The notes beneath the pieces are model-generated. The model was not told where the DNA came from and ran no database searches. It saw only the letters and a list, made by a program, of their open reading frames with translations. A stretch of DNA of 64,000 nucleotides, taken from assembly GCF_937982615.1 (NCBI RefSeq), contig NZ_CALJLL010000190.1; one strand, written 5' to 3'. Positions 2,459 through 19,274 of the stretch are shown piece after piece (the first letter of the stretch is position 1; each line of letters opens with the position of its first letter). Source of the stretch: an uncultured Nocardioides sp. Its GTDB lineage: Bacteria; Actinomycetota; Actinomycetes; Propionibacteriales; Nocardioidaceae. The position numbers and the translations under genes were made by a program.

Positions 2459-2483
2459 ACGTAGCCACGCGAGGATCGGTTCC
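2459..2483 (-). promoter_or_regulatory. Candidate ECF-type autoregulated promoter: GGAACC, 16 nt, CGT
   Basis: The minus strand reads GGAACCGATCCTCGCGTGGCTACGTGTAG about 50 nt upstream of the sigma-A start. The same architecture and spacing occur upstream of sigma B. Confidence 0.4.
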
Positions 2484-2515
2484 AGTTCGCTCGCAGACGC
2501 AGAAAGCAGTGCGCT

Positions 2516-2571
2516 CTGCGGCGATCTGTGCGCGCGAAGGAGCCCCGGAGGCTGACGCCTCCGAGGCTCGT
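2516..2571. repeat. Copy 1 of a ~56-nt element (ctgcggcgat + GC hairpin) that also follows the sulfatase stop codon
   Basis: The sequence is ctgcggcgatctgtgcgcgcgaaggagccccggaggctgacgcctccgaggctcgt. Compared with 4461..4517 it differs by one indel and three substitutions. The hairpin arm carries one C.A mismatch in this copy. Confidence 0.8.
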
Positions 2572-2852
2572 CGTGATGGTGCTGCGCTGCTCGCCTAGCG
2601 GTGTCGGCGTACCTCGACCATGCCAGCCACCGCCCTGGGCGACTACCAGAGAGTCGGCTGTTGGGTCGTCGTGGTCATACCTCCGCACGGGACGCAGCAC
2701 ACGTCGCTCGGCGCACGAACACGGGTGCGAGTGCGCGCTGAGTCGAAGGGCTCGTCACGTGCTCGTCGGACTGCGACCCGACGTGCTGTTAGGTCCCGGC
2801 ACTGTGCACGCTGCGTCCACTGTGGGCCCGTCCGCATCGCGACTCTTCCGGG

Positions 2853-4460: not shown

Positions 4461-4482
4461 CTGCGGCGATCCTGTGCGCGCG

Positions 4483-4518
4483 AACGAGCCCCGGAGGCTG
4501 AAGCCTCCGGGGCTCGTT
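4483..4518. terminator. Bidirectional intrinsic-terminator-like hairpin (16-bp perfect stem, 4-nt loop); core of repeat copy 2 (4461..4517)
   Basis: The stem-loop reads aacgagccccggaggc tgaa gcctccggggctcgtt. It sits between the convergent sulfatase (stop 4460) and the membrane-protein gene (stop 4533). Confidence 0.7.
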
Positions 4519-4532
4519 GCTCGAAATGCAGG

Positions 4533-5417
4533 TCAGGGCAGTTCGAAGCCCGGGTCGGCGGCCGCTTCGAGGAGCTCGTCGGATGAGAAGCCCTGGGTCG
4601 GCATGGGCCCGGGGTCGAGCCGCGGGGGGATCGTCGGCTCCTCGGTGTAGCGATCGCTCGTCGTCACGATGACGACCGTGCCGTCAGAGTGCTCCGCCGC
4701 TACCCGCAGACCGATGCCACCGTGGCTCCGGTAGACGGAGACCTTCGCGTCGACAACACCGGCCGGAGGCGTACCCATCGACTCCCAGTCCGGGTCGGCT
4801 GACCGTAGATCCTCCTCCGCCGTGGCCCAGTCGCTGTACACGTCGATCGAGACCATGCCGACTCCGTCGCTGTCGGATGAGGTCCACTTCGGCCGCATCC
4901 CGAGTCCGTTGACGCCACATGGTTCGACCGTCTTGTCGACGCTGAACCAGGAGCCCGAGACCGGCTGCAGGTGCTGTCGCTCTGAATCGAGATGCTTGAC
5001 CAGGAGCTCGAAGTAGGCACCGAGCGCCGGCCGTAGCCCGGGGTCGTCGTCGGCGATACGAACCGGGCTCTCGCCTTCGAGCAATCGGGCCCCTGAACAC
5101 GTGAGCTCGATCAGACTCTGCTGAGCCGATGGTGTCGGCGGTACGGACGGCGGCAGCGGCGGAACCGACGGCGTCGTCGACGCGAAGCCGGTCGTCGAAC
5201 GCTGCGGCTCCTGCGGGCCAAGCAACCCGGAGCTCGAGCCGGCGATGCCGACCACGCCGACGACAGCCAGGGCGGCGACCGCGCCGGCGGCGCGCGTACG
5301 GCGTACGCGCGTGCGGCCGGTGCGGAGCACGGTGTCGGTGACGTCGACGCCGTCGAAGTGGTGGGCGTTGCGGTGGAGGCTGGCGGTCAGCGCCTCGTCC
5401 TCGGGGGTGGTGTGCAT
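4533..5417 (-). CDS. Single-pass membrane protein downstream of ECF sigma B (putative anti-sigma/sensor), paralog of 1005..1886
   Basis: Track ORF of 294 aa beginning MHTTPEDEALTASLHR, with TM helix AAGAVAALAVVGVVG. The N-terminus and TM align with copy A, but the extracytoplasmic domain has diverged. Confidence 0.6.
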   Translation of the reverse strand: MHTTPEDEALTASLHRNAHHFDGVDVTDTVLRTGRTRVRRTRAAGAVAALAVVGVVGIAGSSSGLLGPQEPQRSTTGFASTTPSVPPLPPSVPPTPSAQQSLIELTCSGARLLEGESPVRIADDDPGLRPALGAYFELLVKHLDSERQHLQPVSGSWFSVDKTVEPCGVNGLGMRPKWTSSDSDGVGMVSIDVYSDWATAEEDLRSADPDWESMGTPPAGVVDAKVSVYRSHGGIGLRVAAEHSDGTVVIVTTSDRYTEEPTIPPRLDPGPMPTQGFSSDELLEAAADPGFELP

Positions 5418-5458
5418 GTCGGTGCTCCTGTTCAGAGTGGATTCGTCAGTGGGAATGG

Positions 5459-5953
5459 TCAGTGGGGCTGGGGCTGCAGTGCGGCGGCGAGCGAGGCGAG
5501 GGCACGCGAGGTGTAGGCCTTGACCGTCCCGGTGGGGACGTCGAGCGTGGTGGCGACCTCCTCGACCGAGAGGCCCCAGTAGTGCCGGAGCACCACTACG
5601 CGGCGTTGCGCGAGCGGCAGTGCCTGGAGGGCCCGCATCAGCTCGTCGGCGTCCACCAACTCCAGGCCGGTGGGACTCGCACCGAGGGCCGGGTCGGCCA
5701 CCGCGTGCTCACGGCGCCAGGGACGGCGGTACTCGTCCTTGACGCTGTTGACCAGCGCGCGGCGTACGTAGGAGTCGACGTCGTCGGCTCGCGATACCCG
5801 CGGCCACGCGGCGTACAGCTTGGTCAGCGTGCTCTGCACCAGGTCCTCGGCCTGGTGCACATCACCGCACAGGTAGTGGGCGACCCGCAGCAGATGCCGC
5901 TGGCGTCCCTTCACATAGGCGGTGAACTCCTCGTCCCGCGTCGATCGCCGCAT
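5459..5953 (-). CDS. ECF sigma factor, copy B
   Basis: Track ORF of 164 aa. The first 18 residues are almost identical to copy A (MRRSTRDEEFTAYVKGRQ) and the region-4 HTH is conserved. By eye roughly three quarters of positions are identical. Confidence 0.85.
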   Translation of the reverse strand: MRRSTRDEEFTAYVKGRQRHLLRVAHYLCGDVHQAEDLVQSTLTKLYAAWPRVSRADDVDSYVRRALVNSVKDEYRRPWRREHAVADPALGASPTGLELVDADELMRALQALPLAQRRVVVLRHYWGLSVEEVATTLDVPTGTVKAYTSRALASLAAALQPQPH

Positions 5954-6299: not shown

Positions 6300-7175
6300 C
6301 TAGCGGAAGACCACCGTCCGGTTGCCGTTGAGCAGGACGCGGCTCTGCGAGTGCCAGGCGACGGCGCGGGAGAGGACGGCGGCCTCGACGTCGCGGCCGG
6401 CGGCGACCAGCTGCTCGGGGTTGTGGGTGTGGTCGACGCGGGTGACGTCCTGTTCGATGATCGGGCCCTCGTCGAGGTCGGCGGTGACGTAGTGCGCGGT
6501 GGCGCCGACCAGCTTCACGCCTCGGTCGAACGCCGCGTGATAGGGCTTGGCGCCCTTGAACGACGGCAGGAACGAGTGGTGGATGTTGATGGCGCGACCG
6601 CCGAGCTCACGGCACAGGCCGTCGCTGAGGATCTGCATGTAGCGCGCCAGCACCACGAGGTGGATGCCCTCACCGTCGACCAGCTCCATCAGCTGTCGCT
6701 CGGCCTGCTGCTTGGTGTCGGGGCTGACGGGGATGTGGTGGAACGGGATGCCGTAGGTCTTGACCAGCGGCTGGGCGTCGGGGTGGTTGGAGACCACCGC
6801 GGGGATGTCGATGTTGAGTGAGCCGGTGCTGTGCCGGAACAGCAGGTCGTTGAGGCAGTGCAGCTGCTTGGAGACCATGATCAGCGTGCGGTACGGCGAC
6901 GCGGAGGACCACAGCTCGTAGTCCATGTCGAACTCACCCGCCACCGAAGCGAACTCCTCGCGCAACACGTCGGCGGAGATCGGCGAAGAGACCTCGAAGT
7001 CGATCCGCATGAAGAAGCGGTCGTGGCGTACGTCGTCGAACTGCTGCGACTCGAGGATGTTGCCGCCGAACCTCAGCAGGAAGCCGGTGACGGCGTGCAC
7101 GATCCCGGGACGGTCCGGGCAGCTCAGGGTGAGGACGAAGTCGCCGGCGGTCTCGGCAGTGCTCGCAATGGTCAT
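6300..7175 (-). CDS. purU: Formyltetrahydrofolate deformylase
   Basis: Track ORF of 291 aa. The N-terminal ACT domain reads FVLTLSCPDRPGIVHAVTGFL. A formyltransferase core follows, with HHSFLPSFKGAKPY. Confidence 0.9.
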   Translation of the reverse strand: MTIASTAETAGDFVLTLSCPDRPGIVHAVTGFLLRFGGNILESQQFDDVRHDRFFMRIDFEVSSPISADVLREEFASVAGEFDMDYELWSSASPYRTLIMVSKQLHCLNDLLFRHSTGSLNIDIPAVVSNHPDAQPLVKTYGIPFHHIPVSPDTKQQAERQLMELVDGEGIHLVVLARYMQILSDGLCRELGGRAINIHHSFLPSFKGAKPYHAAFDRGVKLVGATAHYVTADLDEGPIIEQDVTRVDHTHNPEQLVAAGRDVEAAVLSRAVAWHSQSRVLLNGNRTVVFR

Positions 7176-7178
7176 GCC

Positions 7179-8618
7179 TCAGTCCCCCAGCTCGGCGCGG
7201 CGACGGACGACGTACTCCTCGAGCTCCTGGCGCACCGCGTCGTCGAGCGGCGGCGGCTCGTAGTCCTCGAGCTTCTTCTTGTAGATCTCGCCGGCGCGGG
7301 TGGCGGTGTCCTTGGCGCCGTTGCGCATCCACCGCTCGTAGTTGTCCGAGGAGTTGAGGAAGGGGCGGTAGAAGCAGGTGCGGAACCGCTCCATCGTGTG
7401 CATGGCACCGAGGAAGTGGCCTCCGTGGCCAACCTCCTCGTGAGCGCCGAAGGCCATCGACTCCTCGTCGATCTCGAGCGGCGTGAACTCGGCCTGGAGC
7501 ATCTCCACGATCTGCGCGTCGATGACGAACTTCTCGAACCCGGCGACCAGGCCGCCCTCGAGCCAGCCCGCCGAGTGCATCACCCAGTTGGCGCCGGCCA
7601 GGAACGTCGGCATCAGGGTCATCAGCGCTTCGTAGCCCGCCTGGGCGTCGGGCACCTGGGAGGAGGTGAGGCCACCACCGGTGCGGAACGGCAGGTTGAA
7701 GTGCCGCGCGATCTGGCCGGTGCAGAGCAGGCCGATGCCGCTCTCCGGCGTACCGAACGTCGGCGACCCGGACTGCATGTCGATGTTGGAGAGGAAGGAG
7801 CCGAAGACCACCGGGGCGCCCGGCCGGATCAGCTGTGAGAGCGCGATGCCGGAGAGCGCCTCGGTGATCTGCTGGACCAGCGCCGCCGGGATGGTCACCG
7901 GCGACATCGCGCCCATCAGGATGAACGGCGTCAGCACGACCGGCTGCGCGGCCGCGGAGTATTCGAACTGCGACTCGAGCATCCGGTCGTCCCAGCGCAG
8001 CGGGCTGTTGCAGTTGATCAGGGAGATGATCGCCGGGGTCTCCTCGATCGCCTCCCGCGAGCCGAACAGGATCTCGGTCATCGCGATCGTGTCGGCGGCG
8101 TTGACGCCCGAGACGACGTTGCCCATGTAGAGCTTGTCGGTCAGCGTCTGCAGCGCGTAGACCATGTCGAGGTGGCGGCTGTCGAGCGGGGTGTCGTTGG
8201 GCTCGTTGACCACGCCGCCCGCCGAGTCGAGCACCGAGAAGCTCTGCGCGAGCCGCGCGAAGTTGCGGAAGTCCTCCATGGTGCCGTCGCGGCGTACGTC
8301 GCCCTCACGCACGAACGGCGGCCCGTAGACGGCACCGAAGGCCATCGAGTCGCCGCCGATGTGGACGGAGTTGGCGGGGTTGCGGGCCTGGAGGTCGAAC
8401 TCGCTGGGGGCCTTGGCGACCTGTTCGAGGACGAAGTCGGGGTCGAGCTTGACGCAGTTGCCCTCGACCTTCTGGCCGGCCTGGCGGAACAGCTCGAGCG
8501 CTCGGTCGTCCATGAACTCGACGCCGATCTCGGTCATCAGCCGGCGCCATCCGGTCTCGAGGGTCGCCATGGCGTCCTCGGACAGGATCTCGTAGCGCGG
8601 CATCTTGTTGACGAACAC
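7179..8618 (-). CDS. MttB-superfamily (trimethylamine methyltransferase family) substrate:corrinoid methyltransferase, non-pyrrolysine type
   Basis: Track ORF of 479 aa, uninterrupted, so there is no in-frame amber codon. The N-terminus reads MPRYEILSEDAMATLETGWRRLMTEIGVEF, typical of the family. Its stop lies 3 nt upstream of the purU start. Confidence 0.8.
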   Translation of the reverse strand: MFVNKMPRYEILSEDAMATLETGWRRLMTEIGVEFMDDRALELFRQAGQKVEGNCVKLDPDFVLEQVAKAPSEFDLQARNPANSVHIGGDSMAFGAVYGPPFVREGDVRRDGTMEDFRNFARLAQSFSVLDSAGGVVNEPNDTPLDSRHLDMVYALQTLTDKLYMGNVVSGVNAADTIAMTEILFGSREAIEETPAIISLINCNSPLRWDDRMLESQFEYSAAAQPVVLTPFILMGAMSPVTIPAALVQQITEALSGIALSQLIRPGAPVVFGSFLSNIDMQSGSPTFGTPESGIGLLCTGQIARHFNLPFRTGGGLTSSQVPDAQAGYEALMTLMPTFLAGANWVMHSAGWLEGGLVAGFEKFVIDAQIVEMLQAEFTPLEIDEESMAFGAHEEVGHGGHFLGAMHTMERFRTCFYRPFLNSSDNYERWMRNGAKDTATRAGEIYKKKLEDYEPPPLDDAVRQELEEYVVRRRAELGD

Positions 8619-8683
8619 GGGGTCCTCCTGATTGCGAACGTGCTGGCGAACGCTTGACCTTGATCGGATCGAGATCCTAGCCT

Positions 8684-8731
8684 CATCATGTGGAACTTGG
8701 GTTCCATCATGTGGAACCCATCATGTGGAAC
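8684..8731. promoter_or_regulatory. Three perfect 13-bp direct repeats CATCATGTGGAAC in the mttB/iclR divergent intergenic region; candidate operator array
   Basis: The copies lie at 8684-8696, 8705-8717 and 8719-8731. Copy 1 plus its flank also forms the palindrome TGGAAC-TTGG-GTTCCA. The array sits 39-86 nt upstream of the IclR start. Confidence 0.6.
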
Positions 8732-8769
8732 CCCGAGCGTCGAGGTCAAGAGGCAGGAAGGAGCGACCG

Positions 8770-9543
8770 ATGGCTGCCAGTGGCACCCAGGCCGTGGATC
8801 GCGCCGCGCTGCTCATCTCGACGGTCGTGACGGCCACCGAGCCGCTCAGCTTCGCCGACCTCCAGGAGGCCTGCGACCTGCCCAAGTCCACCACCTCGCG
8901 GATGCTCACCGCACTCGAGCGCTCGGAGTTGCTGGAGCGCACCGACGACGGCAGCTACGTCGCGGGCGGCCTCTTCTGGCTGTACGCCGCGCGGCACGAC
9001 CCGGGCGAGGACCTGGTCCGGCTGGCGCGGCAGACCCTGGCCGCCATCAGCGAGGAGACCCACGAGACGGTCAACCTCAGCATCGCCCGCGGCGACCGGG
9101 TCGTGCAGGTGGCACAGGTCGACTCGCAGTTCCTGCTCGGCACCCGCGACTGGACGCAGGTCGACGTCCCGGTGCACTGCAACTCGTTGGGCAAGGTGTT
9201 CTTGGCCTGGGAGGTGCTCCCGCTGACCGACGGTCCACTGGAGCAGCCGACCGACGCCACGATCACCGACCGCGACGCACTCGCCGCGGACTTCAAGCGC
9301 AGCCGCCGCCGCGGCTGGGCGACCACCGTCGACGAGCTCGAGGTCGGGCTCGCCGGCGTCGCCGTACCCGTCCTCGGCACCCGCGGCCAAGTGGTCGCCG
9401 CCCTGGGCGTCTCGGGACCCACCACCAGACTCGAGGACCGGTTCGACGAGCTCGGCCGGCTGTTGAGGAACCACGCGACGGAGCTGACTTCCCGGCTCCG
9501 CGGCACGACAGCTTCACCGATCACGAAAGAGGGCGCAGCATGA
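8770..9543 (+). CDS. IclR-family transcriptional regulator
   Basis: Track ORF 8632..9543, trimmed to MAASGTQAVDRAA (AGGAAGGAG upstream). The wHTH reads LSFADLQEACDLPKSTTSRMLTALE, and an IclR effector domain follows. Confidence 0.85.
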   Translation: MAASGTQAVDRAALLISTVVTATEPLSFADLQEACDLPKSTTSRMLTALERSELLERTDDGSYVAGGLFWLYAARHDPGEDLVRLARQTLAAISEETHETVNLSIARGDRVVQVAQVDSQFLLGTRDWTQVDVPVHCNSLGKVFLAWEVLPLTDGPLEQPTDATITDRDALAADFKRSRRRGWATTVDELEVGLAGVAVPVLGTRGQVVAALGVSGPTTRLEDRFDELGRLLRNHATELTSRLRGTTASPITKEGAA

Positions 9544-10208
9544 GCAGTCCCGAGGAGATCCTGCAGGGCCTCTACGACGAGACGCTGGTCGGCAATGCGC
9601 CCCGCGTCCTGGAGCTGACCGAGGAGGGACTCATGCTCGGCATGGAGCCGCAGACGCTGCTCTTCGACGCCCTCATCCCGTCGCTGGAGGAGGTCGGCGC
9701 ACGGTTCGAGCGCGGTGACTTCTTCGTGCCCGAGATGCTGATCGCCGGCCGCGCGATGGCCGGCGCCATGGAGCGGCTGCGCCCGCTGCTCGCCGAGACC
9801 GGCGTCGAGACGGTCGGCAAGTTCCTCATGGGGACGGTCAAGGGCGATGTCCACGACATCGGCAAGAACCTCGTCAACATCATGCTCGAGGGCGCCGGCT
9901 TCGAGGTCATCGACCTCGGCGTCCAGGTCGCCCCCGAGAAGTTCGTCTCGGCCATCGAGGAGCACCAGCCCGACATCGTCGGGTTCTCGGCGTTCCTCAC
10001 CACCACGATGCCGATGTTCAAGGCCAACATGAACGCCCTGGAGAAGGCCGGCATCCGCGAGCAGGTCATCGTCATGGTCGGCGGCGCCCCGGTCACCCAG
10101 GAGTACGCCGACGCGGTCGGCGCCGACGGGTACGCCGCCGACGCATCGGCGACGGTCAAGCGGGCCAAGGATCTGCTCAACCAGAAGCGCGCGAAGGTGC
10201 CTGCCTGA
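9540..10208 (+). CDS. Corrinoid (B12)-binding protein of a methyltransferase system
   Basis: This is the last 222 aa of track ORF 8688..10208. It carries the cobalamin-binding motifs GDVHDIGKN (DxHxxG), FSAFLTTT and MVGGAP. An ATGA overlap joins it to the iclR stop. Confidence 0.85.
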   Translation: MSSPEEILQGLYDETLVGNAPRVLELTEEGLMLGMEPQTLLFDALIPSLEEVGARFERGDFFVPEMLIAGRAMAGAMERLRPLLAETGVETVGKFLMGTVKGDVHDIGKNLVNIMLEGAGFEVIDLGVQVAPEKFVSAIEEHQPDIVGFSAFLTTTMPMFKANMNALEKAGIREQVIVMVGGAPVTQEYADAVGADGYAADASATVKRAKDLLNQKRAKVPA

Positions 10209-11089
10209 TGGCGTACGAAGGCGAGCCTCTGCACACCGTCCTCCGCTCACCGAGCAAGGAGGTGGTGATCGGCCACGACCAGCGCTTCTGCCTGATCGGC
10301 GAGCGGATCAACCCGACCGGCCGGCGGATCTTCCAGGAGCAGCTGCGCGCCGGCGACCTGTCCGCGATCGAGCGCGACGTGAAGGCTCAGGTCGAGGGTG
10401 GCGCCGACGTACTCGACGTCAACATGGGCGTGCCACTCACCGACGAGCCCGAGTTGCTGGCCAAGGCGATCCAGCTGGTGCAGTCGCTGACCGACCTGCC
10501 GATCTGCATCGACTCCTCCGTGGTCGAGGCGCTCGAGGCCGGGCTCTCGGTCTACCAGGGCCGGGCGCTGGTCAACTCGATCACCGCCGAGGACGACCGG
10601 ATGGAGGCGATCCTCCCGCTGGTCAAGAAGTACGACGCCGCGATCATCGCGCTGCCCAACGACCACGACGAGATCCCGATGGAGGCCGACAAGCGGCTGG
10701 TGCTGACCGAGAAGATCATCCGGGTCGCGACCGAGGAGTACGGCATCGCCAAGGCCGACATCGTGATCGACCCGCTGGCCATGCCGATCGGGGCCGACAC
10801 CTCGACCGCGCTGGTCACGATGGAGACGATGCGCCGGATCCGCGACGACTTCGGCGTCAACATGACCTGCGGTGCCTCCAACACCTCCTTCGGCATGCCC
10901 GACCGGCACACCCTCGGCGCCGCCTGGCTGCCGATGGCGATGACCCAGGGGCTGACCTGCGCGATCATGGACGCCCGCACGCCCCAGATCGTCGACGCCG
11001 TGAAGGCCGCCGACGTCTTCATGAACCACGACGACTGGGGCATGGCCTGGATCTCCGCCCACCGCGCCAAGGCGGCCGCCACGGCATGA
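10208..11089 (+). CDS. Methyl-corrinoid:tetrahydrofolate methyltransferase (pterin-binding domain, MetH/MtrH/AcsE-like)
   Basis: Track ORF of 293 aa. LIGERINPTGRR and GADVLDVNMG are typical of the pterin-binding barrel. The start overlaps the preceding stop (TGATG). Confidence 0.8.
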   Translation: MAYEGEPLHTVLRSPSKEVVIGHDQRFCLIGERINPTGRRIFQEQLRAGDLSAIERDVKAQVEGGADVLDVNMGVPLTDEPELLAKAIQLVQSLTDLPICIDSSVVEALEAGLSVYQGRALVNSITAEDDRMEAILPLVKKYDAAIIALPNDHDEIPMEADKRLVLTEKIIRVATEEYGIAKADIVIDPLAMPIGADTSTALVTMETMRRIRDDFGVNMTCGASNTSFGMPDRHTLGAAWLPMAMTQGLTCAIMDARTPQIVDAVKAADVFMNHDDWGMAWISAHRAKAAATA

Positions 11090-11102
11090 GCGCCGGACAG
11101 CT

Positions 11103-13067
11103 GTGACCGACGAGCCGATCGGAGACTTCGACCCCGAGGCCCTGCGACGCGAGGGCCTGGTCACCCCGCCCGGGGGTGGCGACGCCCAACCGCACGACGG
11201 GACCGGCCGGGTCGAACTCTCCTTCACCGTCGAGGACCCCGACCCGGCGCGCACCGCGCAGCGCCAGGTCCGGGTGCCCCCGGGGGTGACCGTCTTCGAC
11301 TCCGCGTCGTGGAACGGCATCGCGATCGACTCCACCTGCGGCGGCCACGGCACCTGTCACAAGTGCAAGGTCCAGCTCAACCGCAGCGAGCCGGTGACCC
11401 GGCACGACGAGAAGACGTTCAGCAAGGACCAGCTCGACGGCGGCTGGCGGCTGGCCTGCCTGGTCAAGGCGACCCGCGACCTCTCCGTCGTCGTACCCCC
11501 ACTCACCACCCGACCCAAGGCAGCGACCGTCGGCGTCGGTCGGCAGGTGATCCTGCGGCCCGCCGTACAGAAGCGGTACGTCGAACTGACCGAGCCCACG
11601 CTCGAGGATCAGACGACCGACATCGACCGGCTGCTCGCCGCGATCACCGACCTCGAGCCCCGAGCCGACCTGCACGTGTTGCGACGGCTGCCCACGGTCC
11701 TGCGCGCGGCCGACTTCAAGGTCACCGCGGTGATCGTCGACGAGGAGCTGATCGACGTCGAGCCGGGTGACACCACCGACCGGCGCTACGCGATCGCCTT
11801 CGACCTCGGCACCACCACGGTCGTGGCCACCCTGCTCGACCTGGTCACCGGTACGCCGGTCGCGGTCGCCTCGATGCTCAACCGGCAGCAGCCGTTCGGT
11901 GGCGACGTGATCAGCCGGATCAGCGCGACGATGCTCGACCCCGAAGCGCTGGAGCGGCTCCGGACCGCGGCCTGCGAGACGCTGGCGCAGCTGGCCGCCC
12001 AGGTCTGCGTCGAGGGTGGCGTGGACCCCACGCACGTCTACGAGGCCGCGATCGCCGGCAACGCGACGATGACCGCGCTGGCCCTCGGCATCGATCCCGA
12101 GCCGCTCGGGGTCGCGCCGTTCGTGATGTCCACCGCGCTGCCGCCCGCCGTACTCGCCGAAGAGCTGTCGCTCGGGCTGCACCCACGCGCCCGCGCGGTC
12201 TTCTTCCCGGCGCTCGGCGCCTACGTCGGCGGCGACATCGTCGCCGGGATGCTCGCCTCGGGGATGGACCGCGACAAGCGCACCCGGCTCTTCATCGACG
12301 TCGGCACCAACTGCGAGATCGTGCTCAGCGACGGCGACACGATCCTCTCGACCGCCGCACCCGCCGGGCCGGCGTTCGAGGGTGGTGCGATCCGCTGCGG
12401 CATGCGAGCGGCGGACGGCGCCATCGAGGTCATCAAGCTGACCGGCGACGGGCCGGCGGAGTCGGCCGTCGAGCTCGGCGTGATCGGCGACGTCGAGCCG
12501 AAGGGGCTGTGCGGCTCAGGGCTCGTCGATGCGGTGGCCGAGCTGGTGAAGGTCGGGCTGCTCGACGGCAGCGGACGGTTCGTGCCCGAGGACGTCGCCA
12601 AGGAGCTGGCGCCGTCTCTGGCCGACCGGTTGACCATGATCGGTCAGGAGCGGGTGTTCGTGCTGCACCGGCCGACCATCGACGCCGACCCGGCCGAGTG
12701 TGTGGTGCTCTCGCAGCGCGACGTCCGTGAGCTGCAGTTCGCGAAGGCCGCGATCTCGACCGGGTGGACGCTGCTCCTCGAGCAGCTCGGGCTCGAGCAC
12801 CGCGACGTGCAGCAGGTGCTGCTGGCGGGCTCGTTCGGCAGCTACCTCTCGGCCGCCTCGGCCGTCCGCATCGGGCTGGTCCCGCAACTGCCGGTGCTGC
12901 GCATCGTCGCGGCCGGCAACGTCGCCGGCGAGGGCGCCAAGATGGCGCTGCTGTCGATCCGCGAGCGGGCGGGCGCCCAGGCGCTGCTGGAGGAGGTGAC
13001 CTATGTCGAGCTCTCCGACCGCCCCGAGTTCAACGACCGGTTCGTCGAGCAACTCGCCTTCAGCTGA
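11103..13067 (+). CDS. Reductive activator of corrinoid enzymes (RamA/RACE-like: 2Fe-2S ferredoxin + ASKHA ATPase, DUF4445)
   Basis: Track ORF of 654 aa with a GTG start. The N-terminal ferredoxin cluster reads CGGHGTCHKCKV. The ASKHA-like motifs DLGTTT and DVGTNCE follow. Confidence 0.75.
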   Translation: MTDEPIGDFDPEALRREGLVTPPGGGDAQPHDGTGRVELSFTVEDPDPARTAQRQVRVPPGVTVFDSASWNGIAIDSTCGGHGTCHKCKVQLNRSEPVTRHDEKTFSKDQLDGGWRLACLVKATRDLSVVVPPLTTRPKAATVGVGRQVILRPAVQKRYVELTEPTLEDQTTDIDRLLAAITDLEPRADLHVLRRLPTVLRAADFKVTAVIVDEELIDVEPGDTTDRRYAIAFDLGTTTVVATLLDLVTGTPVAVASMLNRQQPFGGDVISRISATMLDPEALERLRTAACETLAQLAAQVCVEGGVDPTHVYEAAIAGNATMTALALGIDPEPLGVAPFVMSTALPPAVLAEELSLGLHPRARAVFFPALGAYVGGDIVAGMLASGMDRDKRTRLFIDVGTNCEIVLSDGDTILSTAAPAGPAFEGGAIRCGMRAADGAIEVIKLTGDGPAESAVELGVIGDVEPKGLCGSGLVDAVAELVKVGLLDGSGRFVPEDVAKELAPSLADRLTMIGQERVFVLHRPTIDADPAECVVLSQRDVRELQFAKAAISTGWTLLLEQLGLEHRDVQQVLLAGSFGSYLSAASAVRIGLVPQLPVLRIVAAGNVAGEGAKMALLSIRERAGAQALLEEVTYVELSDRPEFNDRFVEQLAFS

Positions 13068-13659
13068 GGCTCGTACGGCGGTCATCGCGTGCGGCGCGAT
13101 CGCCCAGCCGGTGGCCGACGTGGTCGCGCGCCGCGGCTGGCCGGTCGCCGTACACCCGCTGCCGCCACTGCTCCACAACCAGCCGCAGCTGATCGCCGGC
13201 GAGGTCCGCACGCTCGCGGTCGAGCTGTCCGCGACGTACGACGTGGTCGCCGTGGCCTACGCCGACTGCGGCACCTACGGCGCGCTCGACACGGTCTGCG
13301 ACGAGCTCGGGCTGCGCCGGCTCCCGGGACTGCACTGCTACGACCTGTTCGCGGGTGAGTCGCGGCTGGCGTCGTTCCTCGACGAGCAGCCCGGGACCTA
13401 CCTGTTCACCGACTTCCTGGTCCGTTCCTTCGAGCGGACCGTCGTCCGCGAACTCGGCCTCGACCGCTACCCCGAGCTGGCCGAGGACTACTTCCGCCAC
13501 TACACGCGCGTGGTCTGGCTCGCCCAGGAACCCACCCCCGACCTCCGGGCCCGCGCCGAGGCCGCTGCCGCCCGGATGGGCCTGCCGCTCACCGTTGTCG
13601 AGACCGGCGACGTCAAGCTGGAGGTCGCGCTCGAGGAGTTGCTTGCCCTGGCGCGCTAG
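13003..13659 (+). CDS. DUF1638 domain protein (unknown function, typically linked to corrinoid methyltransferase clusters)
   Basis: Track ORF of 218 aa containing VIACGAIAQP, YADCGTYG and GLHCYDLF. The only canonical in-frame start is ATG 13003, which overlaps the activator gene by 65 nt. Confidence 0.65.
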   Translation: MSSSPTAPSSTTGSSSNSPSAEARTAVIACGAIAQPVADVVARRGWPVAVHPLPPLLHNQPQLIAGEVRTLAVELSATYDVVAVAYADCGTYGALDTVCDELGLRRLPGLHCYDLFAGESRLASFLDEQPGTYLFTDFLVRSFERTVVRELGLDRYPELAEDYFRHYTRVVWLAQEPTPDLRARAEAAAARMGLPLTVVETGDVKLEVALEELLALAR

Positions 13660-13662
13660 CCG

Positions 13663-13754
13663 CGAGTTTCGTCGGTCGACCGACGAAACTCGTGCTTGGA
13701 CGACGCAGTTGTGTCGTCCAAGGTCGAGTTTTGTCGGCTGGCCGACGAAACTCG
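13663..13754. terminator. Array of three consecutive hairpins/palindromes between convergent genes
   Basis: 13663-13692 is a perfect 30-bp palindrome, cgagtttcgtcggtcgaccgacgaaactcg. 13695-13722 forms a 10-bp stem with an 8-nt loop. 13725-13754 is a near-copy of the first element (14-bp arms, one G.U position). The array lies between the DUF1638 stop (13659) and the metF stop (13772). Confidence 0.7.
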
Positions 13755-13771
13755 CCGCCACCGGGCGCAGG

Positions 13772-14632
13772 TCAGGCCTTGGCGGTCAACTGGTCGAGCA
13801 GGTCGCGACGCCAGGCGACGGTAGCGGCGACCTGGTTGAAGGTGAAGACGTGCAGGCCTTCGACGAACATCTCGGCAGGGGCGAGGGAGGGAGCGACCTT
13901 CTCGAGGAACTTCTCGCCGGTGAACCCGCCCGGCGCAGCCAGTCGGGCGAAGGTGCCCTTGTGCTTGGCCAGGAACCGGGTCGACTCACCCACGCCGATC
14001 TTGGTGGCCATCGAGAGCAACTTGGTGCGGTCGACCGGTCCGGGGATGCCGAGGAGCAACGGCATCGTGATGCCGCGCTTGCGCATCCGGCCCACCCAGG
14101 TGGTGAGGACCTCGGGGTCGAAGGTCAGGTTGCTCACCACGTGAGTGGCGTACCGACGCTTGTCCCACATCGACTGGATGGTGAGGTCGTCGCTGATTGT
14201 CGGGTGCGACTCGGGGTAGCCGGTGATGCCGATGTGGCCGAACGGGCTGCCGATCGCCTTCAACTCCTCGAGCAGCGACAGCGCGTCGGGGTAGTCGCCC
14301 GGCGGGTCCGCGTCGCCGCCGGGCACGAAGATCCGGTCGATGCCCTGACTGGTCAGCCGCGCGCAGATCTCCTCCAACTCGATCCGGTCGCGCACCATCC
14401 GCGCGGCGAGGTGGGGTACGGCGGTGTAGCCGTGCTTGGTGAGCCGCTCGGTCAGGTCGAGCGTCGCCTCGAGACCCTTGCCGGGCGACGCGGTGACGGT
14501 GACGGCTTCGGCGCGATCGACATGCTCCAGGACCTGGTCCTCGATCGACGCGGTGGGCAGCACCTCGTAGCGCGTCTGCGAGAGCAGCCGCACCATCGTC
14601 GCGGCGGCCGATGCCTTGGTCTTGTTGCGCAT
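13772..14632 (-). CDS. metF: 5,10-methylenetetrahydrofolate reductase
   Basis: Track ORF 13772..14941, trimmed to MRNKTKASAAATMVRLL. The sequence YEVLPTASIEDQV...VTASPGKG...VPHLAARM...PGGDADPPG matches the MetF family. Confidence 0.85.
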   Translation of the reverse strand: MRNKTKASAAATMVRLLSQTRYEVLPTASIEDQVLEHVDRAEAVTVTASPGKGLEATLDLTERLTKHGYTAVPHLAARMVRDRIELEEICARLTSQGIDRIFVPGGDADPPGDYPDALSLLEELKAIGSPFGHIGITGYPESHPTISDDLTIQSMWDKRRYATHVVSNLTFDPEVLTTWVGRMRKRGITMPLLLGIPGPVDRTKLLSMATKIGVGESTRFLAKHKGTFARLAAPGGFTGEKFLEKVAPSLAPAEMFVEGLHVFTFNQVAATVAWRRDLLDQLTAKA

Positions 14633-14672
14633 GGTGCACCTTGTTTCGTATTGCGCACGGGGTGCGGCCAGC

Positions 14673-16115
14673 CTAGTCCGGGCCGCGCGTCCCGTCGATA
14701 GTCTGCGCCGACGCAGCCGCGACCGCCACCTCCGGGCGGCGGATGGCAATCCAGGAGATCCCCGCGCCCACGACCAACAGCCCCGCGCAGATCGCCATCG
14801 CCGAGTTGAAGGCGGTGTCGAAGACGCCCGGGTCGGCGTACTCCGCGCCACCGAGCCCGACGACCACCGGCAGCGCCGCCACCGCCAGCAGGGATCCCGC
14901 GCGCGCGACCGCGTTGTTGACGCCGCTGGCGATCCCGGCATGCTCCTCGGGTGCAGCTGCCAGCACGGTCGCGGTCAGCGGCGCGATCATCGTCGTGAGG
15001 CCGAGTCCGAAGACCACCATCGCGGGCAGTACGTCGGCGACGTAGTTCACCTCCGCGTCAATGCGGCGCATCAGCAGCACGCCCACCGCCATGATCAGCG
15101 GTCCGACGGTCATCGGCACCCGGGGCCCGATCCGTACTCCGAGGCGCCCGGACCTCGTGCCGAGCGACAGCATGATCAGGGTCATCGGCACGAACGCCGC
15201 GCCGGCCGCCAGCGCGCCGTACCCGCTGACCGTCTGCAGTTGGATCGTGGTGAAGAAGCTGACCGCACCCAGCGCGCCGTACACGAGCAGGGTCATGCCG
15301 TTGGCAGCGCTGAAGGTCCGGCTGCGGAAGATCCCGAGAGCCAGGAGCGGCTCGCGCTCACGCGACTCGACCACCAGGAAGCCGGCCGCCGACACCACGC
15401 CGACCACGACCGCGAGCCAGGCGGCGGTGCCGCCCCATTCGATGAGCGCGTACGTCGTGCCACCGAGCGCGAGCGCGGCGAGGACGGCACCGGCGAGGTC
15501 GAAGTGCGAGGACGCGTGCGGGTCGCGCGTCTCCGGCACCCACCGCATCGCGATCACGACAGTGACCGCGACCAGCGGCGGGTTGATGAGGAAGATCCAC
15601 CGCCAGTCGGCGTACTGCACGAGGCCGCCACCGAGGAACGGCCCGATCGCTCCCGCGACCGAGGCCAGCCCCGCCCAGGCCCCGATCGCCGGCGCGCGGT
15701 CCTCGGCCCGGAACGCGCCCTGGATCATCGCGAGGCTGCCGGGCGTGAGCAGGGCGCCCCCCACGCCCTGGAGCATCCGGGCGGCGATGAGCACCTCCGG
15801 GTTCGGCGCGAGACCGCAGAGGAGGGAAGCCGCGGCGAACCAGATCGAGCCGATCACGAACACCCGCCGCCGGCCGAACCGGTCGCCCAGCGAGCCGCCG
15901 AGCAGGATCAGGCTGGCCAGGGTGAGCAGGTAGCCGTTGGTGATCCACTGCAGTTGGGCCAGGCTCGCGTCGAGATCCTCACCGATGGTCCGCAGCGCAA
16001 CGTTGACCACAGTGCCGTCGAGGAAGGCGATCCCCGACCCGAGCGCGGCGGCGGCGATGACCGCCCGGCCGGTCGAGGTGCCCATCCGCACCGCTGCCGG
16101 CGCCGAATCCACCAC
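14673..16115 (-). CDS. MFS transporter, DHA2 (14-TMS, EmrB/QacA-like)
   Basis: Track ORF of 480 aa with LDGTVVNVALRTIGEDL and GGSLGDRFGRRRVF. The start may instead be at MGTSTG (16085). Confidence 0.85.
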   Translation of the reverse strand: MVDSAPAAVRMGTSTGRAVIAAAALGSGIAFLDGTVVNVALRTIGEDLDASLAQLQWITNGYLLTLASLILLGGSLGDRFGRRRVFVIGSIWFAAASLLCGLAPNPEVLIAARMLQGVGGALLTPGSLAMIQGAFRAEDRAPAIGAWAGLASVAGAIGPFLGGGLVQYADWRWIFLINPPLVAVTVVIAMRWVPETRDPHASSHFDLAGAVLAALALGGTTYALIEWGGTAAWLAVVVGVVSAAGFLVVESREREPLLALGIFRSRTFSAANGMTLLVYGALGAVSFFTTIQLQTVSGYGALAAGAAFVPMTLIMLSLGTRSGRLGVRIGPRVPMTVGPLIMAVGVLLMRRIDAEVNYVADVLPAMVVFGLGLTTMIAPLTATVLAAAPEEHAGIASGVNNAVARAGSLLAVAALPVVVGLGGAEYADPGVFDTAFNSAMAICAGLLVVGAGISWIAIRRPEVAVAAASAQTIDGTRGPD

Positions 16116-16139: not shown

Positions 16140-17018
16140 ATGTCCCGTGCCTATGCCCCGTCAGCCGAACTTCGGCTGACCGAGCACGTCGCCAAGCTGG
16201 CCGACGAGCACCCGCCCATCGAGCTCGACTCGGTCGACTTCAGCGTCGTCCGGCCACATGAGTTCGAGGCGCGGTTCGGCCACGTGCTCGACTACATGGC
16301 CCGCGTCGAGCTCGAGGTCGACCGCAACGTGCTCGAGCTCACCACGCTGCTCCCCGACCCGCCCGAGATCGACCGGCACTTCTACACCATCTGGCAGCGC
16401 CAGGAGATCCACCACGGGCTGATCCTCGACCGACTCCAGGTCGAACTCGGGCGCGGGGCCGCCGACGCGGACCTCGACTCGATCGGCGCCAAGCTCAAGG
16501 TCCTCGGCGCCCTCGCGCACCTCGGCCCGTTCCAAGACGTGTGCCGGATGCTCTACTACCTCACCGGCATGGCCACCGAGCGCTCCGCCGTCCTCGCCTA
16601 CAACCTGCTCCACCGCGGCACCATCGAGATGGGCGAGACAGCCATCGCCAACACCGTGATCGGCCCGATCAAGCGCCAGGAGCCCGGCCACTTCGCCTTC
16701 TACCAACTCTCCGCGCGCAGCCTGTGGGCCGAGCTAGCCGGGTGGCAGCGCTGGCTGGTGCGGCTGATGCGCCGGATGTCGTTCGCCCCCGTGGGCGCCA
16801 ACAACTCCCGGCAGAAGGCCGACTTCGGCGACGTGATGGCCACCCTCGGCATCTCCGAGGACCTCGACGACTTCGCCGACCAGATCTCTCGGGTCGAGAC
16901 CGAACTGCTCTGGGCCCGCGACCGCGGCCTCAAGGTCCCCGACTACGTCGCCCGCGCTTTCCGCGAGGCTGTCGAACTGGCGCGCGAGCGGGCGCACCTG
17001 CCGCACCTCCATCGCTGA
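16140..17018 (+). CDS. Ferritin-like di-iron carboxylate protein (hypothetical oxygenase/desaturase-like)
   Basis: This is the last 292 aa of track ORF 14616..17018, beginning MSRAYAPSAEL. Spaced E / ExxH motifs are present: VELEV, QRQEIHH, ATERS, RQEPGHF. The family is not identifiable by eye. Confidence 0.55.
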   Translation: MSRAYAPSAELRLTEHVAKLADEHPPIELDSVDFSVVRPHEFEARFGHVLDYMARVELEVDRNVLELTTLLPDPPEIDRHFYTIWQRQEIHHGLILDRLQVELGRGAADADLDSIGAKLKVLGALAHLGPFQDVCRMLYYLTGMATERSAVLAYNLLHRGTIEMGETAIANTVIGPIKRQEPGHFAFYQLSARSLWAELAGWQRWLVRLMRRMSFAPVGANNSRQKADFGDVMATLGISEDLDDFADQISRVETELLWARDRGLKVPDYVARAFREAVELARERAHLPHLHR

Positions 17019-17217: not shown

Positions 17218-18663
17218 ATGGACGCCATCGCCAACGCCACCGTCGCGCCGGGGTCGACCCAGCAGTGGCGCGATCCCAAGCGGTACCTGTGGCTGATCGG
17301 GCTCGTCGTACCCAGCCTGTTCTTCATCGGGTACGTCGGCTGGCTGGCCACCGGCTGGCCGGGGCTGTTCTGGATCGGCCCGGTCGTCATCCTCGTCATC
17401 GTGCCGGCCATCGACCTGGTCGCCGGTCTCGATCGGTCCAACCCGCCTGACGACGTGATCGAAGCGCTGGAGCGGGACCGCTACTACCGGTGGATCACCT
17501 ACCTCTTCCTGCCGATCCAGTACGTCGGCTTCGTCGCGGCGATGTACCTCGTGGCCCGCGGCGACCCGCTCGGGATCGGCGGCGAGATCCCGCTCTGGGC
17601 GAAGATCGGCCTCGCGGTCTCGATCGGCTGCATCGGCGGCATCGGCATCAACACCGCCCACGAGCTCGGGCACAAGAAGGAGAGCCACGAGCGCTGGCTG
17701 TCCAAGATCGCGCTCGCCCAGAGCTGCTACGGCCACTTCTATATCGAGCACAACCGCGGACACCACGTCCGCGTAGCGACACCCGAGGACCCGGCGAGCA
17801 GCCGCGTCGGCGAGAGCTTCTACCAGTTCTGGCCGCGCACCGTCCTCGGCTCACTCAAGAGCGCGTGGCGCTTGGAGCGGCGCCGCTACGCCCGTAGGAA
17901 GCAGCACCCGTTCCGGCTCAGCAACGACGTGCTCAACGCTTGGCTGATGTCAGTGGTCCTCTGGGGCGCGCTGGTCGCATGGCTCGGCGTCGGGATCGTG
18001 CCGTACCTCCTCATCCAGGCGGTCGTCGGCTTCTCCCTGCTCGAGGTCGTCAACTACATGGAGCACTACGGCATGCTCCGCCAGCAGGTGGGCGTAGGCG
18101 AGCGGCAGCGCTACGAGCGGGTCGACCCCTCGCACTCGTGGAACTCCAACAACATCGCCACCAACGTGCTCCTCTACCACCTGCAGCGACACAGCGACCA
18201 TCACGCGAACCCGACCCGCCGCTACCAGACCCTGCGCGACTACCAGGAGTCGCCGGTGCTGCCGACCGGGTACGCCGGGATGATCGTGCTCGCCATCGTG
18301 CCCGCGATCTGGCGCCGGGTCATGGACCCCCTCGTGCTCGCCCACGTCGACGGCGACCTGTCGCGGGCGAACCTCTCACCGCGCAAGCGCGATCGGCTCC
18401 TGGCGGCCTACCCGCCACCATCGGCGGTCGAGCCTGTCGAGACCACCCGTCCTGGCCTCCCCGCCGTGACCGACGACGTCCTCGCGGCGCGCTGCCCCGG
18501 CTGCGGCTACACCTACGACGTGGTCACGGGTGACGAGCGCGAAGGCTTCGCGGCCGGTACGCCGTGGGCAGACGTCCCGGACGGCTGGTGCTGTCCCGAC
18601 TGCGGCGTCCGGGAGAAGGTCGACTTCGTCCCGCTGGACAGGTCACTGACGACCGGGTCCTAG
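17218..18663 (+). CDS. alkB: Alkane 1-monooxygenase fused to a C-terminal rubredoxin
   Basis: Track ORF of 481 aa. The histidine boxes are HELGHKK, EHNRGHH and LQRHSDHH, plus NYMEHYG. The C-terminus reads CPGCGYTYD...WCCPDCG, a rubredoxin CxxC...CxxC motif. Confidence 0.9.
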   Translation: MDAIANATVAPGSTQQWRDPKRYLWLIGLVVPSLFFIGYVGWLATGWPGLFWIGPVVILVIVPAIDLVAGLDRSNPPDDVIEALERDRYYRWITYLFLPIQYVGFVAAMYLVARGDPLGIGGEIPLWAKIGLAVSIGCIGGIGINTAHELGHKKESHERWLSKIALAQSCYGHFYIEHNRGHHVRVATPEDPASSRVGESFYQFWPRTVLGSLKSAWRLERRRYARRKQHPFRLSNDVLNAWLMSVVLWGALVAWLGVGIVPYLLIQAVVGFSLLEVVNYMEHYGMLRQQVGVGERQRYERVDPSHSWNSNNIATNVLLYHLQRHSDHHANPTRRYQTLRDYQESPVLPTGYAGMIVLAIVPAIWRRVMDPLVLAHVDGDLSRANLSPRKRDRLLAAYPPPSAVEPVETTRPGLPAVTDDVLAARCPGCGYTYDVVTGDEREGFAAGTPWADVPDGWCCPDCGVREKVDFVPLDRSLTTGS

Positions 18664-18686
18664 TAGAGCATCGCGCTACTAGGGTC

Positions 18687-19274
18687 ATGACCGTGACCGC
18701 GCCCCCGCTCGCCATGCGCGAGCGGGTCCTCGAGGCCGCGGTCACGCTCACCACCGACGACGGCTGGGCCCACGTGACCATGGCCCGGCTGGCGGAGGTC
18801 GTGGGGGTCAGCCGGCAGACCGTCTACAACGAGGTCGGCTCCAAGCCAGCGCTCGCCGAGGCGATGATCCTGCGCGAACTGGACCGCTTCCTCGGACTGG
18901 TCACGGTGGCCTTCGACGCCCACCCGACCGAACTGGTCGAGGCGATCCGGGCCGCGTCGCGCGCCGTACTCGAAGCCTCGCAGGACAACCAGCTGCTGCG
19001 CGCGATCGTCTCGGCCACCCATGGCGCCGACACCGAACTGCTTCCGCTCCTGACCACCCACGCGGGCACGCTGCTGTCGACCGCCAAGGCCGTCGTGGTC
19101 GAGCGGGTGGCGCCGTACGACGTGGGCCTCGCGCCCGCCCAGCTCGACGCCGCCATCGACATGGTGGTCCGGGTGGTGCTCAGCCATGTCATGCAGCCCT
19201 CAGCCGCCCCGGACCGTACGGCGGACGACATCGCCTGGGTCTCGGCCCGGGTGCTGCGCGCGCACGGCGCGTAG
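18687..19274 (+). CDS. TetR-family transcriptional regulator (AlkX/AlkU-like position downstream of alkB)
   Basis: Track ORF 18564..19274, trimmed to MTVTAPPLAMRERVLEAAV. The HTH reads VTMARLAEVVGVSRQTVYNEVGSK. Confidence 0.85.
   Translation: MTVTAPPLAMRERVLEAAVTLTTDDGWAHVTMARLAEVVGVSRQTVYNEVGSKPALAEAMILRELDRFLGLVTVAFDAHPTELVEAIRAASRAVLEASQDNQLLRAIVSATHGADTELLPLLTTHAGTLLSTAKAVVVERVAPYDVGLAPAQLDAAIDMVVRVVLSHVMQPSAAPDRTADDIAWVSARVLRAHGA

Follow-up and report, generated by a model that had tools for sequence, protein, structure and literature searches.

A nine-gene actinobacterial island that probably belongs to the aerobic cobalamin-dependent glycine betaine demethylation systems

Introduction

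From which compound does an aerobic actinobacterium take methyl groups when it carries a corrinoid methyltransferase system, and what becomes of those methyl groups afterwards? These questions are raised by a nine-gene island at positions 6300-16115 of a 64,000-nucleotide stretch of DNA (the window; contig NZ_CALJLL010000190.1 of assembly GCF_937982615.1, from an uncultured Nocardioides sp.; ~70% G+C), at the heart of which lies a gene for a homolog of the methyltransferase MttB. A first-pass annotation, made from the sequence alone, had read the island as corrinoid-dependent methyl transfer on a non-pyrrolysine MttB protein, coupled to the oxidation of tetrahydrofolate (THF)-bound one-carbon (C1) units in an aerobe, an outline that homology supports; it had also seen room for a new substrate specificity. 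We propose that the island probably represents, in actinobacteria, the cobalamin-dependent system by which aerobes demethylate glycine betaine (MtgBCD type). We favor this reading because the same parts list has been published for aerobes, because choline-oxidation genes and betaine/choline transporter genes are each linked to the island in 65 of 71 related loci, and because three of the four binding residues of the characterized glycine betaine enzyme (R312, H348 and Y97) are conserved. The kind of system is thus one already described for aerobes, to which the island adds a member and not a new kind.

The published architecture, which the first-pass annotation missed, consists of MtgBCD together with a RamA-like protein, DUF1638 and MetF2 (PMC12478193; bioRxiv 10.64898/2025.12.19.695462). 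Growing aerobically on glycine betaine, Ruegeria pomeroyi induces two PF06253 proteins, MtgC, MtgD, a RamA-like protein, DUF1638 and MetF2, and its mtgC and mtgD are required both for growth on glycine betaine and for methionine synthesis (Mausz et al. PNAS 2025, PMC12478193). A Phaeobacter inhibens mtgB1 gbcAB double mutant does not grow on glycine betaine (bioRxiv 10.64898/2025.12.19.695462). Among marine mtgC reads, about 5% are assigned to Actinomycetota, none of them characterized there, and a gene cluster of S. meliloti has been read as MtgBCDE (PMC12478193). The MttB-family protein of that S. meliloti cluster is identical to the protein of Protein Data Bank (PDB) entry 4YYC, and its neighbors encode a cobalamin-binding protein (MtgC), DUF1638, a formyl transferase, MetF, a methyl-THF:cobalamin methyltransferase (MtgD), an ASKHA protein, bmt and a glycine betaine ATP-binding cassette (ABC) transporter.

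The island and its MttB homolog

Gene identities were taken from Pfam and NCBIfam profile searches and from homologs with solved structures, and the profiles bear out the gene content and coordinates of the nine genes as first annotated. The features of the island are as follows.

6300-7175, minus strand: purU, formyltetrahydrofolate deformylase with ACT and formyl transferase domains (TIGR00655 349 bits, cut-off 286; NF004684 413 bits)
7179-8618, minus strand: mttB, predicted non-pyrrolysine MttB-superfamily methyltransferase, MtgB-like (PF06253 616 bits)
8619-8769: divergent promoter/operator region with repeats, the 151-nt mttB-iclR spacer
8770-9543, plus strand: iclR, IclR-family transcription regulator with HTH_IclR and IclR_C domains, first gene of the plus-strand operon
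9540-10208, plus strand: MtgC-like corrinoid protein (PF02607 and PF02310, GDVHDIGKN)
10208-11089, plus strand: MtgD-like pterin-binding methyltransferase (PF00809; PRK07535 309 bits, cut-off 259)
11103-13067, plus strand: ramA, RACo/RamA-type reductive activator (Fer2, RACo_linker, Raco_middle and RACo_C_ter domains)
13003-13659, plus strand: DUF1638 protein (PF07796 79 bits)
13651-13766: nested palindromes between the convergent DUF1638 and metF genes, found by repeat search
13772-14632, minus strand: metF, methylenetetrahydrofolate reductase (MTHFR)-like protein of the flavin-independent mycobacterial (Mfr) type (PF02219 44 bits, weak)
14673-16115, minus strand: DHA2-family major facilitator superfamily (MFS) efflux-type transporter (TIGR00711 233 bits, cut-off 230)

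These genes are tightly packed. The mttB stop TGA is followed by GGC and the purU ATG, a 3-nt gap; iclR and the corrinoid gene share an ATGA overlap, and the corrinoid gene and the pterin gene a TGATG overlap; ramA begins with GTG after a 13-nt gap and is itself overlapped by DUF1638 over 65 nt. The 3-nt gap and the three overlaps had been noted earlier and are confirmed from the sequence. The MFS-metF pair had been called convergent, which holds for the pair as a whole, facing the plus-strand operon, but not for its members, which stand in tandem on the minus strand with the MFS gene upstream and a 40-nt gap between them. All nine open reading frames (ORFs) are intact, with a third-position G+C (GC3) of 0.86-0.97 that marks coding-type codon bias.

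The product of 7179-8618 is predicted to belong to the non-pyrrolysine branch of the MttB superfamily, which agrees with the earlier call of an MttB-fold homolog. It matches PF06253 over its full length (616 bits, residues 3-478), and its PDB matches are 4YYC (1e-127), the D. hafniense MtgB structures 2QNE/9YCE (1e-115) and pyrrolysine-type MttB, 7XCL (8e-40); TIGR02369, the model for pyrrolysine-type MttB, gives 288 bits, under its cut-off of 525. The gene starts with GTG, 6 nt after an AGGAGG, and the N-terminus MFVNKMPR is kept in relatives. As first annotated, the ORF contains no internal TAG; it terminates in TGA, and its codon 317 (CTC, Leu) falls, in the alignment, on the pyrrolysine residue X334 of M. 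barkeri MttB.

Which methylated compound might this enzyme use? In D. hafniense MtgB, glycine betaine is held by Y97 and F356 through cation-pi contacts and by R312 and H348 at the carboxylate (Picking et al., PMC13080624). The active-site comparison that the first-pass annotation had called for gives a divided answer: by alignment, the homolog keeps three of these four residues, Y98 (equivalent to MtgB Y97), R312 and H348, whereas F356 is replaced by Gly. The homolog shares a WLEGG loop with 4YYC, including W352, and this tryptophan may or may not stand in for the lost second cation-pi contact. Taken together, the pocket residues would fit a carboxylate-bearing quaternary amine without settling which one. 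With identities of 40% to D. hafniense MtgB (full length) and about 44-45% to 4YYC, and with one of four binding residues different, the earlier statement that the substrate cannot be read from this sequence alone stands. NCBIfam contains no model for the E. limosum enzymes MtcB, MtpB, MtyB and MthB that matches the homolog.

Linkage to choline and betaine genes in related genomes

The strongest evidence on the substrate comes from related genomes. A scan with one genome per species turned up no fewer than 579 loci that encode relatives, of which the best 80 were taken with 10-kb flanks, and the counts below are given out of 71, the relatives with enough upstream flank (iclR-to-MFS side) or downstream flank (purU side). 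These relatives belong to Nocardioides, Pimelobacter, Marmoricola, Phycicoccus and Nostocoides, and their MttB proteins are 84-96% identical to that of the window. All five genes iclR, mtgC, mtgD, ramA and DUF1638 are present and divergent from mttB in 68/71, so that the association of this unit with mttB is more than chance. Directly after mttB/purU, 65/71 encode choline dehydrogenase (BetA), betaine-aldehyde dehydrogenase (BetB) or both, and 65/71 encode a ProV/OpuA-type ABC or a BCCT betaine/choline transporter. All 71 have a second IclR gene on the downstream side, and a fragment of a DAO-family oxidase, most like N-methyl-amino-acid/sarcosine oxidases, is found in 17. The BetA of one close relative scores above the threshold of TIGR01810, the choline dehydrogenase equivalog (816 bits, cut-off 732); in the same relative, betaine-aldehyde dehydrogenase is the best model for the aldehyde dehydrogenase, and the ATPase clears the ProV family model. 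The linkage has outlasted several rearrangements, among them purU in either orientation and insertions of fhs, BCCT and toxin-antitoxin-like genes. Because relatives with a near-identical MttB link it to choline oxidation and to betaine/choline uptake, glycine betaine is the most likely substrate of the homolog on this comparison, and the earlier argument for a new specificity is not supported.

In the window, a tblastn search with BetA, BetB and Opu proteins found none of them, and none of the remaining large ORFs, when scanned with Pfam, showed a BCCT, OpuAC, GMC-oxidoreductase, aldehyde-dehydrogenase or DAO domain. The strain of the window would appear simply to have lost the adjacency of the island to the bet/opu genes, which may lie elsewhere in its genome.

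Where relatives have iclR2-betB-betA-opuA, the window carries, within 1-5953, two extracytoplasmic function (ECF) sigma/anti-sigma pairs (5459-5953/4533-5417 and 1915-2454/1005-1961; sigma factors 78% identical) that flank a sulfatase gene (2853-4460), with M4 peptidase genes alongside. A choline sulfatase at this place would have restored the link to choline, but the sulfatase reaches 93 bits with TIGR03417 against a cut-off of 433, and we rejected this candidate.

The MFS gene, singled out in the first-pass annotation as the only adjacent transporter and as bearing on the substrate, lies beside metF in 14/71 relatives. As it is also of the DHA2 efflux type, we rejected it as the importer and as a conserved part; it probably has no functional role here.

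Methyl transfer, reactivation and DUF1638

The corrinoid protein has a B12-binding cap (PF02607) and a Rossmann B12-binding domain (PF02310) with the DxHxxG motif in GDVHDIGKN. Its best NCBIfam matches, MtgC_2 (202 bits) and MtbC (178 bits), are both under cut-off; it is 45% identical to the cobalamin-binding protein of the S. meliloti cluster and is found in 70/71 relatives at 85-96% identity. Its partner, the MtgD-like protein, passes PRK07535, matches the MetH pterin module with 141 bits and is 46% identical to the S. meliloti 'methyltetrahydrofolate cobalamin methyltransferase'. We propose that it carries out methyl transfer from methyl-Co(III)-corrinoid to THF.

The activator has the four-domain architecture of RACo (N-terminal plant-type 2Fe-2S ferredoxin, linker, middle and ASKHA domains) and matches RACo itself, PDB 3ZYY, at 3e-95. 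Because its scores fall under the equivalog cut-offs of both AcsV (424 bits, below 800) and RamA (TIGR04270, 98 bits, below 500), we classify it as a probable RACo-type relative and as neither AcsV nor archaeal RamA proper. It is found in 69/71 relatives and is 31% identical to the S. meliloti ASKHA protein. Aerobic life had been offered earlier as the explanation for a dedicated activator, an argument that loses its force given that RamA/RACo activators are standard in anaerobes too.

Overlapping the activator gene is that for DUF1638. ATG 13003 is the sole in-frame start upstream of a (V/I)ACGA(I/L)AQP motif in the window and in nearly all of ~16 relatives inspected; the start-bearing ATG sits 65-68 nt inside ramA in nearly all the loci inspected, and different genera share both the overlap and the N-terminal motif ACGA(I/L)AQP. 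The overlap is genuine, because the conserved motif lies upstream of the shorter start and, in nearly all of these loci, only the ATG inside ramA precedes it, and it implies translational coupling of the activator and DUF1638. Public and metagenome gene calls give DUF1638 proteins of 178-179 residues (locus L001, 4960-5499; locus L004, 4960-5496), which lose the motif because the true start lies inside ramA; a longer form of 213-224 residues is present in many database entries.

The DUF1638 protein is 37% identical to its S. meliloti counterpart. By analogy, we regard it as a putative accessory of corrinoid reactivation: in P. inhibens the split methionine synthase depends on DUF1638 together with a RamA-like protein (PMC5764234), and DUF1638 is induced on N-osmolytes in R. 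pomeroyi (PMC12478193). A sequence search of the PDB with DUF1638 gave no matches, and a Foldseek search of the PDB with its AlphaFold2 model (pLDDT 80) gave generic two-lobed alpha/beta matches only, with TM below 0.5.

Folate-linked oxidation of the methyl group

The metF product lies far under the canonical MetF models (PF02219 44 bits; TIGR00676 49 bits, cut-off 294), and blastp against the canonical MetF of the S. meliloti cluster gives no match at E<=1e-5. Its best PDB match is 7XG9 (1.3e-27), of the flavin-independent mycobacterial reductase type, and the N-terminal catalytic-Glu motif is conserved, with YEVLP aligned to LEITP; the Mfr family has been described (PMC11094777 and PMC10586308). 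An MTHFR of the Mfr type is the clearest difference from the proteobacterial systems. We propose that it may oxidize methyl-THF (CH3-THF) to methylene-THF (CH2-THF). The gene adjoins the island in 67/71 relatives, a PurU homolog is encoded no more than 10 kb from mttB in 58/71, in either orientation, and fhs, for formate-THF ligase, stands beside PurU in 17/71. No folD is present in the island, as had been observed before. In Nocardioides islandensis (locus L015, 1725-5014), three additional genes separate metF from DUF1638, for a MetE-like Meth_synt_2 protein (449 aa), an aldehyde dehydrogenase and a DUF1348 protein; through the first of these, the corrinoid system might be connected to homocysteine methylation.

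The divergent promoter and other non-coding elements

How might the two arms of the island be controlled together? The mttB-iclR spacer holds three direct copies of (C/T)CATCATGTGGAAC (8683-8696, 8704-8717 and 8718-8731), which partly form GTTCCA-N-TGGAAC palindromes. Allowing up to 1 mismatch, the motif TTCCACAT[GC]ATG occurs in the window at the three spacer sites and at one stray 1-mismatch match at 53768. Across the related loci, 115 matches fall in the mttB-iclR spacer bin and 6 in the other ~21 kb per locus, and the motif occupies the same spacer in Nocardioides, Pimelobacter, Marmoricola, Phycicoccus and Nostocoides. On the minus strand, a promoter-like TTGACC-18-CATGAT overlaps the repeats, and on the plus strand a promoter, read by eye, may lie at TTGACC (8654)...TAGCCT (8678). 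Because the motif is confined to the spacer and overlaps promoter-like hexamers in both directions, we propose that the GTTCCACATGAT boxes are the binding site of the island's IclR, which, whether as repressor or as activator, would control both mttB-purU and the iclR operon. The iclR gene is found in 70/71 relatives, and its product passes no NCBIfam equivalog at its cut-off. An Rfam scan of the whole window at gathering thresholds found no cobalamin riboswitch or other RNA element.

At the other end of the operon, 13651-13766 contains a 30-nt palindrome twice (CGAGTTTCGTCGGTCGACCGACGAAACTCG; the second occurrence 87% identical), once on either side of a separate hairpin. We rejected a dispersed repeat, as the window holds no other copy and, among 84 loci, only that of the same strain (L001) has it; the element is probably a strain-specific bidirectional terminator or insulating element.

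A proposed pathway and the known systems

Assembled in order, these parts suggest a pathway from glycine betaine to formate. The MttB homolog would bind glycine betaine, possibly derived from choline, and hand one of the N-methyl groups over to the Co(I) corrinoid carried by the MtgC-like protein, leaving dimethylglycine; the MtgD-like enzyme would move the methyl group from methyl-Co(III) to THF; Mfr-type MetF would convert CH3-THF to CH2-THF; FolD, encoded elsewhere, would take CH2-THF to 10-formyl-THF; and PurU would release formate and regenerate THF. Corrinoid that has become oxidized to Co(II) would be re-reduced by the 2Fe-2S/ASKHA activator at the cost of ATP, with DUF1638 assisting, and IclR, acting at the spacer boxes, would control mttB-purU together with its own operon.

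The host of this pathway appears to be a Nocardioides-like aerobic actinobacterium, because the MttB homolog is 84-96% identical to those of Nocardioides and related genera and because an identical protein lies on contigs of the same layout. That protein is present on 18 metagenome contigs, and the layout is the same as in the window in 3/3 inspected in detail. The aerobic markers that the first-pass annotation had pointed to are indeed there: an alkB-rubredoxin fusion at 17218-18663 and SURF1 at 51074-51946.

How does the island compare with systems already described? The aerobic MtgBCD system of Ruegeria/Phaeobacter draws on the same families (PF06253, a corrinoid protein, a pterin-binding methyltransferase, a Fer2 and ASKHA activator, DUF1638 and an MTHFR), is likewise coupled to THF-linked C1 oxidation and likewise resides in aerobes. 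Its hosts are Pseudomonadota, whereas that of the island is an actinomycetote; the R. pomeroyi genes are scattered, whereas the island is one compact divergent unit with translational coupling; and the island, unlike the Ruegeria/Phaeobacter system, has its own IclR regulator and operator array, PurU within the mttB transcription unit, and a flavin-independent mycobacterial-type MTHFR in place of a canonical MetF paralog. Additionally, the aerobic MtgBCD system has a homocysteine-binding MtgE, whereas none lies near the island, and any link to methionine synthesis would be tentative here. Relative to the S. meliloti cluster, the identities of MttB, MtgC, MtgD, the activator and DUF1638 are about 44, 45, 46, 31 and 37%, respectively. 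In the papers that we found, four features are absent: the compact operon with an IclR operator array, the ramA/DUF1638 overlap, the Mfr-type MTHFR and the wide conservation in Nocardioidaceae/Intrasporangiaceae.

More distant systems share the chemistry. The D. hafniense MtgB/MtgC/MtgA system (2QNE, 9YCE; PMC13080624) has the same non-pyrrolysine MttB-fold TIM barrel with Leu at the pyrrolysine position and the same three-component methyl transfer via a corrinoid protein to THF, whereas the island has an aerobic host, a proposed methyl fate of oxidation in place of acetogenesis or respiration-linked metabolism, and a corrinoid protein that, in contrast to the D. hafniense system, falls under the MtgC NCBIfam cut-offs. 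Methanogen pyrrolysine-type MttB (7XCL; TIGR02369) shares with the island protein the Pfam family, the fold and a cognate corrinoid protein kept active by an ATP-dependent reductive activase, and differs in having UAG where the island has Leu317 and coenzyme M as methyl acceptor where the island would use THF. The cmu chloromethane pathway of Methylobacterium/Methylorubrum extorquens CM4, which reportedly comprises CmuA, CmuB, MetF2, FolD and PurU, is said likewise to couple corrinoid methyl transfer to THF in an aerobe with MetF-type oxidation and PurU, from clustered genes. CmuA is a methyltransferase-corrinoid fusion, whereas the island has a PF06253 protein with a separate corrinoid gene and so does not match CmuA/CmuB; the island also lacks folD, and its proposed substrate is a quaternary amine and not a methyl halide. 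Plasmid homologs of MttB were considered and set aside, all being alphaproteobacterial paralogs at most 47% identical, and a literature search found no paper pairing Nocardioides with trimethylamine methyltransferase.

Points of doubt and alternative explanations

A number of observations weigh against the assignment to glycine betaine demethylation. Because the genomes compared are related, the linkage counts do not represent independent events; in the strain of the window, no bet/opu genes adjoin the island; the operator motif is not found upstream of metF; and the actinobacterial members of the system are known from sequence alone. The MetF step is also awkward, as CH3-THF oxidation with NAD+ is uphill by textbook redox potentials, which is why we put forward its direction as a proposal only. 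The island's MetF appears to be of the flavin-free, NADH-using type, so that the hydride would have to go to NAD(P)+, and an oxidative role is plausible only if FolD, PurU and Fhs pull. Finally, the pocket has changed: the homolog has Gly at 356 and 355 and Trp at 352, where MtgB has F356, Y355 and Ile, and F356L in D. hafniense MtgB raises Km ~800-fold (PMC13080624). An identity of 40% to this one characterized enzyme would not be enough by itself to transfer its substrate specificity.

Could the same machinery serve another methyl donor, such as proline betaine, carnitine, gamma-butyrobetaine, choline/phosphocholine, dimethylglycine or an undescribed compound? The pocket substitutions, the distance from MtgB and the missing betaine genes of the window's strain all speak for such a donor, as do the different quaternary amines used by characterized superfamily members, among whose paralogs the MtgB aromatic pair is not conserved (PMC13080624), and the up to seven PF06253 paralogs of unknown substrate in marine bacteria (PMC12478193). 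Nevertheless, we consider it unlikely, given that choline oxidation, whose genes adjoin 84-96% identical orthologs together with betaine/choline transporters in 65/71 relatives, ends at glycine betaine, that Y97, R312 and H348 are kept, and that the WLEGG loop recurs in the S. meliloti protein from a cluster read as MtgBCDE. A related and doubtful possibility is that the MttB clade of Nocardioidaceae/Intrasporangiaceae, because of its remodeled pocket (W352, G355 and G356 for I352, Y355 and F356), might not be a strict glycine betaine enzyme and might accept one or more other choline- or soil-derived methylated amines.

A different explanation places methionine at the center, with MtgC, MtgD, the activator and DUF1638 working mainly as a split cobalamin-dependent methionine synthase, MetF in a biosynthetic role, the homocysteine subunit encoded elsewhere and MttB feeding in extra methyl groups. 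Exactly these four components form the synthase and reactivation system of P. inhibens (Price et al., PMC5764234), Mfr-type MTHFR is a mycobacterial methionine-cycle enzyme (PMC11094777), and a MetE-like Meth_synt_2 gene has entered the N. islandensis island. Yet neither the island nor the scanned window ORFs contain a homocysteine S-methyltransferase domain, the unit is divergently paired with mttB-purU around a shared operator region that would co-regulate them, and relatives link it to purU/fhs and to choline/betaine catabolic genes and not to methionine genes. IclR-type regulators are, moreover, typical of catabolic operons. We regard this explanation as rather improbable. Lastly, might the island of the window's strain be a decaying, non-functional remnant, cut off from its choline/betaine genes by rearrangement? 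The bet/opu block of 65/71 relatives is indeed missing, with ECF sigma/anti-sigma pairs, a sulfatase and M4 peptidases in its stead, but decay is very hard to reconcile with nine intact, codon-biased ORFs, conserved junctions, an identical MttB protein on 18 metagenome contigs (with the same layout in 3/3 inspected) and an operator array that is not only intact but even expanded to three copies, and the bet/opu genes may lie elsewhere in the genome. Aerobic glycine betaine demethylation of the MtgBCD type thus remains the reading that we prefer.

Surrounding genes

Immediately beyond the MFS gene, 16140-17018 (+) encodes a conserved 292-residue protein with no Pfam match, which was hidden within a spurious 800-codon ORF of the mechanical ORF list; it lies upstream of the AlkB-rubredoxin fusion (+), which is followed by a TetR regulator gene (18564-19274, +). 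A 424-residue ORF at 24170-25444 has a GC3 of 0.95 and no Pfam match. On the minus strand, 28206-34759 holds tandem FAD_binding_4 oxidase genes (28206-29612 and 29724-31136) downstream of a gene for a 1208-residue regulator with Trans_reg_C, BTAD and AAA_16 domains (31133-34759). A block at 36032-46273 encodes FhaA, FhaB, RodA/FtsW, PbpA, PknA, PknB(PASTA), DUF881 and CrgA; in many Actinomycetota this FhaA-CrgA block lies near the replication origin. In many relatives (e.g. locus L011) the island adjoins rplJ-rplL, so its chromosomal position varies between lineages. The rest of the window consists of ordinary actinobacterial genes, including those for malic enzyme and regulators.

Outlook

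The island offers several openings for future work. As a compact, self-regulated operon, it is convenient for reconstitution of the pathway, for study of DUF1638 function and for an oxidative test of a flavin-independent MTHFR. If MetF does run in the oxidative direction, the Mfr enzyme class would gain a physiological role that has not been previously described and that is energetically awkward. Aerobic cobalamin-dependent demethylation of glycine betaine was recognized only in 2025, and only in marine Proteobacteria, whereas the locus described here is kept in well over 500 actinobacterial genome loci (at least 579 confirmed relatives). This breadth suggests that the route may be common in aerobic soil and sludge Actinomycetota, where it would tie the turnover of choline and glycine betaine to the supply of cobalt and B12.

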